A DNA stretch of 64,000 nt from Flectonema sp. DT1601 (lineage: Eukaryota). Positions 3,001 to 22,029 of the stretch are shown here, in pieces (positions within the stretch are counted from its first letter, which is position 1; every line of letters begins with the position of its first letter). The notes beneath the pieces are model-generated. The model saw nothing but the letters and a program-made list of their open reading frames with translations. It was not told the DNA's origin and did no database searches. The DNA lies in the NCBI GenBank assembly GCA_964019425.1, contig OZ025796.1, positions 1,178,001 to 1,242,000 of the forward strand, read 5' to 3'. Position numbers and translations under genes: made by a program.

Positions 3001-5819
3001 TGTTCGTTTTCTATCCCTTCTCCTATCCCTTTTGTTCAAAAAAAGCGGGAGGAAATTCTCTCATTCATGCTAAGATGCACTCTGAACTTTGATTTTTTTG
3101 ATCTGAGTGTGAGGGAATGACCTGTTAGTGCATTGGGCATAAGCTGGGCTGCAGTTTAGATGTCTTAGGTGTTAATAAGGGGTTCCTCTTAGCATTTTTC
3201 TTTGTTACCACCTTATGATTTTCTTGAAGAAAAAAAATAGAAGTCATAATGGTGCTTCCCTCTGGAAGGGTTGTAAGCCATGGTGTCCAACTAAATTAAA
3301 GGACAAGTCTGGGATAATCCCTGCCAGAGGGGCGAGTATTCTACCATGGTTGAAATACTCTGGCAACTGATCTTCAATTTTATGTTGTTTGTTAGCTGCT
3401 GGTGTATCTCGATCATGTGTTGATACTTGCATTTTTTTTTTTATTTGTAATCTTTTACTACAATAACTCTTGCAATTATCTTTTCTTTTTTATTCTCTAT
3501 CTGTTCTGGTCTGTTTCTTCATTTTTTTACATTAATAATTACATTTTGTTCAAAAAGAAAAAAAAAGAAAAAAGATTTCATATTAGAAACCAGGAAACTA
3601 GGTTAACACTTAGTTAAAATTAAGACCGGTTAGTCAGTTTAAGGTCTTGTCTAGGACCAACATTCTTGTTTAACTTCAGTTATATTCATTTTACTTTTTA
3701 TTGTTTCCCATCTACTTTTTATTTTCTATTAGTTCTGGTCAGAAACTCCTGGGCAGCAAGAAGGAAAGTAGTTAAGTACTTCTGGGTGTTTGGCATCACC
3801 CCCCATAGTGAGCAAGTACAACAGGTAGCATTGGTAGTCTGTTGATCCTGAGTGATCCCAGCTACAGTTTTGTTTTTCTTTCTTTTTTTTAGAAGAAGAT
3901 CAGGACATTCAAGCACTGCTGGATAGTTGCTGAATGCAGGGCCTGCCTGTGGCATTATAATAACAGGCTAAGTCATTTGTAGTTCATAGTTTACCTTTGA
4001 TTTTATAACTTCACATAGGGTACTATGAACGATGAGAGATCCAGTGGGATCACTCAGGGTCTAGTAGAGACCACCAATGTTGTGCGTTGATAGGCAAGGT
4101 GACCAACCTTGACATTCTTTCTTTTCTCTCCTGTTGTGACAAACACAAAATACACACACAGCTTACAGTGTGTTCTTTGTGTATGTTTTCTTCAGGTGTG
4201 AGTAGTTTTTTTGTTCTTGCTCTTCAGGGAGGGCCTTAGCCAAAAGCTAACAGTCCAAATCTCACCTGGTAAACTCAACTCAGTCTTTGTCAGTATTGGC
4301 ATCAAACCTGTAATGGTTACATTAACTACCATTTCAACAGGTTATTTACTGAAATATTTGTTCTAAAAGTTGCTAAGTATCTCTCACTTAGAAATTTTTT
4401 TATTTTTTTATTTTCAGCTCAATTAGCTACAAAGTGTTTCTACTAAGTGTTTCTCACTTAGATTTTTTTTTTGCTTTTCAGCTCCTTAAAAGCTGCTAAG
4501 TATTTCTGCTAAGTGTTTCTCACTTAGAATCTTATTGTTATGTTCGTTTTCTATCCCTTCTCCTATCCCTTTTGTTCAAAAAAAGCGGGAGGAAATTCTC
4601 TCATTCATGCTAAGATGCACTCTGAACTTTGATTTTTTTGATCTGAGTGTGAGGGAATGACCTGTTAGTGCATTGGGCATAAGCTGGGCTGCAGTTTAGA
4701 TGTCTTAGGTGTTAATAAGGGGTTCCTCTTAGCATTTTTCTTTGTTACCACCTTATGATTTTCTTGAAGAAAAAAAATAGAAGTCATAATGGTGCTTCCC
4801 TCTGGAAGGGTTGTAAGCCATGGTGTCCAACTAAATTAAAGGACAAGTCTGGGATAATCCCTGCCAGAGGGGCGAGTATTCTACCATGGTTGAAATACTC
4901 TGGCAACTGATCTTCAATTTTATGTTGTTTGTTAGCTGCTGGTGTATCTCGATCATGTGTTGATACTTGCATTTTTTTTTTTATTTGTAATCTTTTACTA
5001 CAATAACTCTTGCAATTATCTTTTCTTTTTTATTCTCTATCTGTTCTGGTCTGTTTCTTCATTTTTTTACATTAATAATTACATTTTGTTCAAAAAGAAA
5101 AAAAAAGAAAAAAGATTTCATATTAGAAACCAGGAAACTAGGTTAACACTTAGTTAAAATTAAGACCGGTTAGTCAGTTTAAGGTCTTGTCTAGGACCAA
5201 CATTCTTGTTTAACTTCAGTTATATTCATTTTACTTTTTATTGTTTCCCATCTACTTTTTATTTTCTATTAGTTCTGGTCAGAAACTCCTGGGCAGCAAG
5301 AAGGAAAGTAGTTAAGTACTTCTGGGTGTTTGGCATCACCCCCCATAGTGAGCAAGTACAACAGGTAGCATTGGTAGTCTGTTGATCCTGAGTGATCCCA
5401 GCTACAGTTTTGTTTTTCTTTCTTTTTTTTAGAAGAAGATCAGGACATTCAAGCACTGCTGGATAGTTGCTGAATGCAGGGCCTGCCTGTGGCATTATAA
5501 TAACAGGCTAAGTCATTTGTAGTTCATAGTTTACCTTTGATTTTATAACTTCACATAGGGTACTATGAACGATGAGAGATCCAGTGGGATCACTCAGGGT
5601 CTAGTAGAGACCACCAATGTTGTGCGTTGATAGGCAAGGTGACCAACCTTGACATTCTTTCTTTTCTCTCCTGTTGTGACAAACACAAAATACACACACA
5701 GCTTACAGTGTGTTCTTTGTGTATGTTTTCTTCAGGTGTGAGTAGTTTTTTTGTTCTTGCTCTTCAGGGAGGGCCTTAGCCAAAAGCTAACAGTCCAAAT
5801 CTCACCTGGTAAACTCAAC
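1..5819. repeat. 1,540-bp tandem repeat array (about 3.8 copies, apparently identical, runs off the left edge)
   Basis: Sequence and ORF track recur at exact 1,540 offsets (1, 1541, 3081, 4621). Identity stops after 5819, where the satellite begins. No credible protein ORF. Confidence 0.97.
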
Positions 5820-6374
5820 AAAAAGAATTTAAAAAAAAAAAAAAAAAAAAAGAATAAACAATGTTATCATTGTTTTTTTATCGATCGACTATGTCGATCA
5901 CTTTCTATTTTCCGTCCTGGTCAAGACGCTAAACTGATTGTTTTTTCTTTAGAATAATAAAAAGGATTAAAAAAAAAAAAAAAAAAAAAAAGAATAAACA
6001 ATGTTATCATTGTTTTTTTTATCGATCGACTATGTCGATCACTTTCTATTTTCCGTCCTGGTCAAGACGCTAAACTGATTGTTTTTTCTTTAAAATAATA
6101 AAAAGGATTAAAAAAAAAAAAAAAAAAAAAAAAGAATAAACAATGTTATCATTGTTTTTTTATCGATCGACTATGTCGATCACTTTCTATTTTCCGTCCT
6201 GGTCAAGACGCTAAACTGATTGTTTTTTCTTTAAAATAATAAAAAGGATTAAAAAAAAAAAAAAAAAAAAAAAAGAATAAACAATGTTATCATTGTTTTT
6301 TATCGATCGACTATGTCGATCACTTTCTATTTTCCGTCCTGGTCAAGACGCTAAACTGATTGTTTTTTCTTTAA

Positions 6375-19820: not shown

Positions 19821-20104
19821 TAAATAAAAAGAATAAAAAAAAAAAAAAAAAAAAAAGGGAATAAACAATGTTATCATTGTTTTTTTTTATCGATCGACTA
19901 TGTCGATTAATTTCTATTTTCCGTCCTGGTCAAGACGCTAAACTGATTGTTTTTTTCTAAAAATAAATAAAAGGAATAAAAAAAAAAAAAAAAAAAAAAA
20001 AAGAATAAACAATGTTATCATTGTTTTTTTATCGATCGACTATGTCGATTACTTTCTATTTTCCGTCCTGGTCAAGATGCTAAACTGATTGTTTTTTTTT
20101 TTAA

Positions 20105-22029
20105 CCCATTAAGGACGGGGGGTCCACTACAGTGGTTATTTTGAAATTTTATTTTCGCTAAGGGGAAAACCCGGCTAACGCTACCCAGGGGGGGTGTAAT
20201 CGAGGCCGTTTCGCGACGAATCTTGGGTGGGATGGCGTGGTTCGCTGTGTTTTTATTCATGAAATTCAAAACTAATAATCAAAATTTTACCACCTAACAA
20301 GAAGTTTCGTCTGCCTGTTGAAATTGATACAAGTTTGGCGTCCTATGAAAGTCTGATGATGATGGATTCTGTATCGGAGTCGTCATCTGACAGCAACACA
20401 GCAAAGGTATCAAAGTGGGGGGGCAAAACCAAGAGAATCCCCAGGGAAAAACAGAAAGGATCTACCCAGAGTGTGAGCGACTTTAATGAAATGAGCGAAT
20501 TGAAGGCATCCAACTCATTTTCACTGATCATGTGCTTAAAATGATATTTCGACACACTCTTACCTACCCGATTGACAAAGAGACGTCCATGAAGTCACTA
20601 GAAGTTGGTGAACTGAAATGCTTTCTCCGTAATTTCCACACTGCTAACAAACACATTCCTGCTTCTTATGTCCATAGTCTTGTTAAACCCCATAATAATA
20701 AAGGGCATTGGGTGACGTTTGACAATTTCAATTCGTCATACGCATTTCTTGTTTTGATGTTGGCGAAAGGGTTCCACTGTGTTGGAACAGCCTGACGGAA
20801 CAGAAAGGGAGTTCTGTTGATGTTACAAAACCGAAGGCTACCCCCTACTAAGCAAATCGGAAGTGAAAGAAAGACCGAAGAATCTTTCTGCTTCTTACCT
20901 TCAGTCAAGCACGGCATCCACCATATAAAGTGGAGAGACTCAAAGGATGTGCATCTTTTCAGTACTCTTCCCCGCAGGGAGAGCCAAGGGTCGAGAACCC
21001 TGGAGATTACCTTTGTTTCTTTTTGTGACTGGATTGCAGTGGCGCAACCCATCACCCCACCTGTTGGTATCTTTTTATTTTTTTTATTTAAAGAAAAAAG
21101 CAGGCTAAGTCGCCTGAGCTGGCATCGCCAGAATATTTAACTTCACATGGCAATGTCAGCTCGTGAAGGGATCCAGTTGGATCAAAGGTTTTCTCCCCCC
21201 ACTCTATTTATCGTCATTGGTGCGCACCTTCGAACAGGAAGGCCAACATTGACGGAATTTTTTACTTCTCTTCCCAAGGTTGAACCTTGGGAAAAAAACA
21301 AACAATAAACACAGTGTAGACAAACACCCGCCGGACATCTGCAGAGCAGCGATCGATGTCGATGTCTTCGTTGTCGAACTTCCTGGCGTTTATGTTTTTG
21401 TTTTTAACAACAACACAACACCAACTAACAGGTTTGTCTCATTGCCCGTTCTTTCTTGTTTCCCTTTGCCGCCGGAAGAACGAAGGTCGACGGAGGTCCG
21501 AAGCATTGCTTGCGATGATGTTCCGGTATGTGTTGCGTCTCTGTTATTTGTTTGTTTCAACTCAATTGGTTCATCTCAGGTTTTAGAAGTCTTCGTCCTG
21601 TTCGATGGGAAGGGCCTGAACCAAAAGTTCACTGCCCCTATTCCTCTCCCAAATTTCTTATTCACGTGAGCACCGTGTCGATGTATATCGCTGGATTAGG
21701 AAGAGAAATAAAAAAGAAAAAGTGCCGATCAAACTACCGTGCAAGTAGACAGGTACACCAAGACGATGGGAGGTGCTAACCTGATGGATAGCGTGAAGGC
21801 AAGGGCGAACAGAAACCTTCAAACTAAACGATGGCATCTAAAGGTTTTCGACTACTTGCTGAAAGTTTCGATGTTCAACACGTTTACCCTTCAAAAGAAA
21901 TGCGGTAAGGATACTGGTACCTACATACGGTATGTGGAGGAGCTCGCTATGCAACTCGTCAGTGACGGGACGTCGAGAGACAAGACAACCAATACTACAT
22001 CTACTATTGACTCGGGTTCGCACTTTTCA
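20105..22029 (+). mobile_element. piggyBac copy 2, 3'-truncated, carrying a 691-bp insert
   Basis: TTAA at 20101-20104 plus left TIR. Colinear with copy 1 except the insert at 20973-21663. Homology ends at 22029 with no right TIR. Confidence 0.93.
20973..21663 (+). mobile_element. Non-coding, highly structured insertion; divergent homolog of part of the 1,540-bp repeat unit
   Basis: Absent from piggyBac copies 1 and 3, no clear TSD. Shares ordered blocks CAGGCTAAGTC, TAACTTCACAT, GATCCAGTKGGATCA, GTGCG, CCAACMTTGAC and the CAAAA hairpin with unit positions about 740-1201. Confidence 0.8.

Follow-up and report, generated by a model that had tools for sequence, protein, structure and literature searches.

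What fixes the right-hand ends of the repeats crowded into one part of a 64,000-nt stretch of Flectonema sp. DT1601 DNA (contig OZ025796.1, positions 1,178,001 to 1,242,000; hereafter the window), and by what route were those repeats copied? Positions 24000-64000 of the window are gene-dense, and positions 1-24000 are a nest of repeats with remnants of piggyBac-like and Mutator-like (MULE) elements. Within that nest, three repeat families, which we call A, B and C, each end shortly after a 26-nt hairpin with a CAAAA loop. The hairpin marks a precise right end and is a real, non-random terminal signal. Our leading reading, which we hold at a probability of about 0.5, is that A, B and C are non-coding mobile elements with a common terminal hairpin, whose copying likely went through RNA, by target-primed reverse transcription (TPRT). 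The structural work covers the window and the contigs of four public runs (X1, X3, X4 and X7).

A paired hairpin precedes each right end

The pattern GGGC-n-N5-CAAAA-N5-Cn-GYCC occurs eight times in the window, on the plus strand only and with a perfect 5-bp upper stem every time. The chance expectation, from 100 shuffles with one mismatch allowed, is a mean of 0.03 matches and a maximum of 1. All eight positions in the initial annotation of this DNA checked out, and neither a sequence-free geometry scan nor a covariance model found a ninth hairpin in the window. The copies cluster within 22 kb and are absent from the gene-rich 40 kb:

1151-1176, plus strand: A hairpin, copy 1; ACTC at +22 to +25
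2691-2716 and 4231-4256, plus strand: A hairpins, further copies
5771-5796, plus strand: last A hairpin; 23 nt on (5819) the array gives way to satellite
9513-9538, plus strand: B1 hairpin; end at +25 (9563), then CGTGAGC
13323-13348, plus strand: B2 hairpin; end at +25 (13373)
16228-16253, plus strand: B3 hairpin; end at +25 (16278)
21612-21637, plus strand: C hairpin; end at +26 or +27

These copies comprise three distinct sequences, one for each family, that agree at 19-21 of 26 positions; the 60 nt upstream agree between families at a near-random 13-22 of 60. In a five-row alignment of the hairpin all 45 cells pair (slid controls pair at 22-51%). Each of the nine base pairs is kept: five are invariant, three change on both sides, and one changes on one side from G-T to G-C. 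The earlier statement that all stem changes are compensatory is right for the three two-sided changes, which lie in the upper stem, and wrong for the one-sided change, which lies in the lower stem. With three independent sequences, the covariation is suggestive and stops short of formal proof. The non-canonical pairs (G-T in A and B; a C>T change at 21621 in X3 and X4) form a wobble on the plus strand only.

All three B copies end at ATTC, at exactly +25, and the sequence that follows differs in each. The ATTC end of C is at +26 (21663), or possibly one base later (21664, ATTCA) because the next A is common to its second insertion site. The A array breaks at +23, and its internal copies read ACTC at +25. 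In run X1 the terminal motif of C is ATCC, hence ATTC is not invariant. These junctions are as first annotated, and the right ends of all three families support the proposal that the hairpin defines one precise end. The heptamer CGTGAGC follows the ends of both B1 and C (2 of 7 right ends) and occurs three times in the whole window; this may hint at a target preference or a sequence-preferring nuclease, at a p of about 0.007 that comes from comparing seven right junctions post hoc.

In public collections, the tight hairpin pattern has no match among viral sequences, and neither has a pattern built on the A/C block described below. A looser hairpin pattern gives 37 matches (19 metagenome, 1 viral, 17 prokaryote-genome), none with the perfect 5-bp stem that all eight window copies have, and we took them to be chance; A(C/T)TC is in place in none of the 18 viral and genome matches. 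C has no match to phages. Because these prokaryote, viral and metagenome collections contain little eukaryotic DNA, such blank scans say little about diplonemids, the group to which the host belongs.

Element C lies between the same two ends at two sites

Family C offers the clearest view of a complete unit:

20973-21663, plus strand: family C insert, 691 bp (692 with the next A), non-coding, strongly folded, inside a piggyBac-like copy

The host element is one of three piggyBac-like copies, and the other two read CCC-TT-ACG at the point of insertion. Measured against these two empty paralogues, and against alleles of X1 and X3 that lack C and have TT joining its two flanks, C has replaced TT, or TTA if the next A belongs to it, a deletion of 2-3 bp. 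In X1, X3 and X4, C carries 3-5 differences, starts exactly at the base corresponding to 20973, ends at 21661-21664 and lies on contigs that continue into other sequence; run X7 has no real cover of C, only a low-complexity stretch. The flanks in X1 and X3 are identical to each other and absent from the window, and therefore represent one further insertion site. There the 5-mer GCTTG stands on both sides if C ends at ATTCA (single contig in X1; chance about 0.002).

C is thus a mobile unit with two fixed ends; its second site carries a 5-bp duplication, and the window site has lost 2-3 bp. The initial annotation had one end fixed and the other variable; this does not hold for C, whose left end is the same at the second site in three of the four runs. 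C has no notable open reading frame (ORF), no long terminal repeat (LTR) and no tail. At 80% identity no direct repeat above 15 nt is present, which excludes split direct repeats. The element is strongly folded (z -5.9), with a 7-nt stretch near each end paired in its centroid structure. We rejected an intron-like reading, since excision leaves a loss of 2-3 bp in the host sequence.

Families A and C have a folded block in common

1-5819, plus strand: family A array of 1540-bp units, head-to-tail; extends past the left edge of the window
5459-5653, plus strand: A/C shared folded block, last A copy
21029-21253, plus strand: A/C shared folded block, C copy

The A array consists of a partial unit (1-1201), two full units (1202-2741 and 2742-4281) and a last unit 2 nt short (4282-5819). 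The 1540-bp units are 100% identical, and the array holds no ORF of at least 120 aa. Upstream of the hairpin, about 200 nt of A and C align with a score of 53.5 (shuffles: mean 29, maximum 38), and four motifs drawn from this block are confined to C and the four A copies. On this alignment we regard A and C as relatives, contrary to the first impression of unrelated repeats. At the protein level the two have no convincing similarity (best tblastx E 0.017, with stops).

In A the block is made up of a CTGGAT/ATCCAG closing helix, a TGC/GCA hairpin, a CCTGT/RCAGG hairpin, a CTAAGTC linker and a long stem tipped by TAACTTCACAT. Folded by itself, A forms the closing helix, the small TGC/GCA hairpin, a CCTGT/ACAGG hairpin and the TAACTTCACAT-tipped stem. 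C, also folded by itself, keeps the long TAACTTCACAT-tipped stem with a different sequence, and its other helices vary between models; a two-sequence RNAalifold run on a MAFFT alignment of A and C failed to recover these single-sequence folds. The multi-helix fold lies 100-480 nt from the end, with the position of the long stem kept despite the sequence change, and such an internal structure would appear to exceed what a rolling-circle terminus needs. Rfam searches of positions 1-24000, of C and of one A unit returned sub-threshold noise only. Descriptor scans for hammerhead and hepatitis delta virus (HDV) ribozymes were negative, with 0 plus-strand HDV solutions for C in two scans; C gave two HDV solutions on the minus strand and A gave 186 loose ones, all discarded because the expected core was absent.

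Family B carries satellite units up to its end

5820-9563, plus strand: B1, 11 units of a ~141-bp satellite and a ~390-bp tail, ending ATTC
6375-8113: piggyBac-like element nested at TTAA within B1
10091-13373, plus strand: B2, 8 satellite units and a tail interrupted by an element with terminal inverted repeats (TIRs; ~11291-13093), ending ATTC
14031-16278, plus strand: B3, 13 satellite units and an intact tail, ending ATTC; adjoins a further satellite array mid-unit
9564-10090: spacer X, unique, right of the B1 end; probable target DNA
13374-14030: spacer Y, three blocks in common with the A unit and one with the satellite unit

The last satellite unit before the tail is, in all three B copies, a variant confined to that position. 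Units -2 and -3 of B1 have their smallest distance, or one tied for smallest, to the units at those positions in B3 (1.0 and 2.0); in B2 this least-distance match to the counterpart holds for unit -2 and not for unit -3. The last units are thus collinear among the copies, and at least 2-3 satellite units therefore moved together with the end. Upstream of them the arrays are reshuffled, and the left ends of B, lying somewhere within satellite, are not placeable. The proposal that the hairpin mobilizes satellite and tandem arrays accordingly stands for these last 2-3 units, and the transport of whole arrays goes beyond the evidence.

The 141-bp satellite unit (5852-20100) consists of three small hairpins and a poly(A) run of ~20-30, in long and short variants that follow one another in mosaic order. 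Spacer Y (13427-13625) and the A unit (5021-5280) have three blocks in common, one of them inverted (69 bp, 97%), and the inverted block also resembles part of the satellite unit; A, Y and the satellite are therefore mosaics of common pieces. Y also contains an ATTC-ending stretch (13995-14023) that by eye resembles the 25-nt tail of B and C; no hairpin precedes it, and the covariance model gives it no score.

How the elements may have moved

The source of the window is a diplonemid, judging by a mitochondrial-type L11 protein with 51% identity to its Diplonema papillatum counterpart; the ten best matches in that search lie far above all others. The genome paper for D. papillatum, a species other than the present host, postpones rigorous transposon identification, and its supplement lists a SLACS-like reverse transcriptase (RT) orthogroup with 745 members (PMC10161547, supplement file 5) and a TATE-like orthogroup with 281.

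Under TPRT, the hairpin is the predicted 3' recognition signal. A plus-strand transcript would fold the CAAAA hairpin, which would be bound by the RT-endonuclease of an autonomous non-LTR element, most plausibly of the SLACS/CRE clade with its restriction-like endonuclease (RLE) and otherwise Penelope-like. Synthesis of cDNA would start 25-27 nt downstream of the hairpin, without a poly(A) tail, and variable second-strand cutting would leave a short duplication or a short deletion. Whatever lay upstream would be carried along: a fixed 691-nt unit in C, satellite units in B, a 1540-nt tandem unit in A. The window holds no partner enzyme, and each of these steps is therefore one that we infer.

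What best separates the mechanisms is that the target was altered at both C sites. Helentron HINEs are described as T-flanked and without target modification (PMC4067079), and IS608 as moving without gain or loss of DNA (PMC3201880), so one-ended rolling-circle transposition, one of two mechanisms suggested in the initial annotation, is weakened. The other, 3'-anchored retrotransposition, fits better. Among elements with a restriction-like endonuclease, R2Bm makes a 2-bp deletion and its relatives leave duplications (PMC6895275). The non-autonomous short internally deleted elements (SIDEs) of R2, ~530 bp long, have structured 5' and 3' ends with compensatory changes (PMC3414825), and the FoTeRs of the CRE/SLACS clade have variable tandem repeats upstream and no clear duplications (PMC12857005). 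It is on the target changes, together with these precedents and the SLACS-like RT of D. papillatum, that we put TPRT first.

A good deal weighs on the other side. The listed right junctions have no poly(A) or simple-repeat tail, and the region has no RT or endonuclease ORF. No hammerhead- or HDV-like fold was found, whereas R2 SIDEs have both a ribozyme and a poly(A) tail, and B has no A/C block. Folding is about equally strong on both strands, as RNA or as DNA; the long stems have no strand bias of G-T versus A-C mismatches (C, 1 vs 2; A, 1 vs 1). A stretch of A outside the shared block, taken as a control, folds as strongly (z -5.3), and strong folding alone is therefore not specific. Rolling-circle copying would account well for the identical 1540-bp tandems and the kilobase satellite cargo, and variable duplications are also left by Replitron-1 and some Chlamydomonas Helitrons (PMC10288648). 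Finally, the target signature comes from two sites, one of them read on 30-letter contig ends at a depth of 5-9, and the second site in X1 and X3 is a single event.

The most serious contender, still a strong one though less probable in our view, makes the hairpin the right terminus of a non-canonical Helitron-like (HUH, rolling-circle) family. A transposase nick at a left end would displace the plus strand as single-stranded DNA up to a stop 23-27 nt past the hairpin, circles would give rise to the 1540-bp tandem, and the satellites would be cargo. Helitrons of Paramecium, in the third clade of Helitron-like elements, come close: satellite arrays lead, within a short distance, into alternative right termini with compensatory, covarying stem-loops and a fixed tetramer, all in one orientation, and ORF-less derivatives exist (PMC13085455). 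Their tetramer, however, is CCAA in place of A(T/C)TC, and the elements described here have no telomeric flanks, lose or duplicate target bases, and come with no transposase seen in the window. Helitron2 and the Helentron HINEs likewise have a subterminal hairpin 8-50 nt from the 3' end and internal tandem repeats, and are non-coding (PMC4067079, PMC5148889, PMC11417382). The target of C in the window is TT, as theirs is, and C has hairpins near both ends with an asymmetric inverted repeat that loosely recalls Helitron2 (PMC5148889). But in C that repeat is 7 bp long and not 12-15, T flanks are lacking, and TT is lost, whereas HINE targets are kept unmodified. Helitron1 elements begin with TC, end with CTRR 10-12 nt past the hairpin and insert at A/T; C reads CGC...ATTC(A) with its hairpin 26 nt off. 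An A unit would start with TC if +23 were its true end, yet every copy of B and C retains TC on the right. D. papillatum is reported to have Helitron-like ORFs; the window contains no RepHel ORF. IS200/IS605 elements have a fixed target tetranucleotide ahead of the left end and neither gain nor lose DNA (PMC3201880), whereas C has a different left flank at each of its two sites, with altered target bases; a by-eye check of the 5' foot of the three hairpins, following the IS608-type guide rule, found no clean covariation with the terminal tetramer. The termini of C have no short direct repeat in common, unlike those of a Replitron.

Passive spread strikes us as unlikely: the hairpin would end a structured host or parasite RNA gene, whose copies filled breaks as cDNA or DNA and then multiplied by local duplication and unequal crossing-over. 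Small deletions are typical of end-joining, and the one at the window C site conforms to this, as do the clustering of the eight hairpins in 22 kb outside the gene-rich part and the reshuffling of satellite arrays beyond the last 2-3 units. Such filler would not be expected to show the same two ends of C at two sites, one with a duplicated target, or three B ends exact to the base, and Rfam recognizes no such gene. Less probable still is descent of A, B and C from tyrosine-recombinase retroelements (TATE/VIPER) as non-autonomous derivatives, like SIRE, integrated from circles. TATE does form tandem clusters, SIRE is a short non-coding derivative of VIPER (PMC6681497), and D. papillatum has its TATE-like orthogroup; against this, C lacks the split direct repeats, and target bases are lost or duplicated with no core common to both junctions.

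Returning to TPRT, the match to known retroelements is also partial. The elements have the structured 3' end of RLE non-LTR elements, preserved by compensatory changes and set a constant distance before the junction, and the short target deletion or duplication, but neither the 3' poly(A) tail nor the 5' HDV-like ribozyme. Like R2 SIDEs, they are short and non-coding with two fixed ends, a structured 5' region and 3' end and a small target change (PMC3414825, PMC6895275); unlike R2 SIDEs, they lie outside rDNA in several different targets (PMC3414825), and their three bodies, different as they are, finish in one and the same 3' hairpin. In having variable tandem repeats ahead of a fixed end they recall the CRE/SLACS/Cnl1/MoTeR/FoTeR clade (PMC12857005), whose SLACS-like RT family is expanded in a diplonemid. 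The window nevertheless lacks telomeric repeats and an RT ORF, and the passages of PMC12857005 consulted here mention no hairpin. Non-autonomous Penelope-like elements (the Chlamys MRC1, animal retrozymes) are also multi-copy and head-to-tail, with similarity concentrated at their 3' ends (PMC8557442, 10.64898/2026.07.22.740005). Here the hammerhead is absent, as it also is from Naiad and most Chlamys, and C is a monomer without the partial-tandem (pseudo-LTR) arrangement; A is tandem, with its left end outside the window. The elements thus resemble 3'-anchored non-autonomous retroelements or Helitron right termini, yet lack a defining terminal feature of each family tested, and we file them under none.

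Implications

The general design is already known: subterminal hairpins fix one end of non-autonomous, tandem-repeat-carrying elements, both among SINE and SIDE partners and among Helitron-like elements. What we describe is probably a mobile-element family with no earlier description, in a lineage that has had little study: diplonemids are eukaryotes abundant in the sea, and most of their repeats have not been classified. Literature searches surfaced no description of this hairpin (the motif letters themselves were not searched library-wide), and seven supplementary files of PMC10161547, on D. papillatum, contain neither "CAAAA" nor "hairpin".

A short terminal tag conserved in structure on three different bodies gives a direct search handle for the autonomous partner, which would name the enzyme and decide between RNA and single-stranded DNA. 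If TPRT is correct, the spread of satellites would depend on a defined cis signal, in a lineage whose transcription is polycistronic; the locus would also provide a minimal tag for recognition and a candidate for a new RNA fold. A bolder version, which we think rather unlikely in full, is that diplonemids have an undescribed, poly(A)-less retro-mobilization in which the 26-nt hairpin serves as a portable 3' tag, through which one enzyme could copy whatever DNA lies upstream, kilobase satellite arrays included, and in which the A/C block is a new RNA motif, possibly a self-cleaving ribozyme or an RT-loading domain.

Other features of the window

The piggyBac-like element is decayed and present in three copies that are 96-98% identical (6375-8113; 20105-22029, truncated; 37590-39329). 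The copies lie at TTAA insertion sites, two within the 141-bp satellite, and match Pfam DDE_Tnp_1_7; the right end of the third is in frame upstream of a sodium:solute symporter ORF (39183-41336). A decayed MULE (17385-19821; PF10551, E 7e-9) with long imperfect TIRs containing 31-bp repeats was inserted in satellite. The TIR element in the B2 tail (11291-13093) is a non-coding 1.8-kb element with 192-bp TIRs at a TA-rich site, and contains a 56-bp palindrome (11866-11921). A frameshifted peptide at 23460-23820 may resemble a Polinton-type DNA polymerase B, for which Pfam, PHROGs and PDB gave no confirmation. Tandem 17-bp units with a GAGATACC core occupy 13733-13835, and at 22592-22755 short tandem arrays of 10-bp TTCACACATT and GTGAAAAATC face each other.

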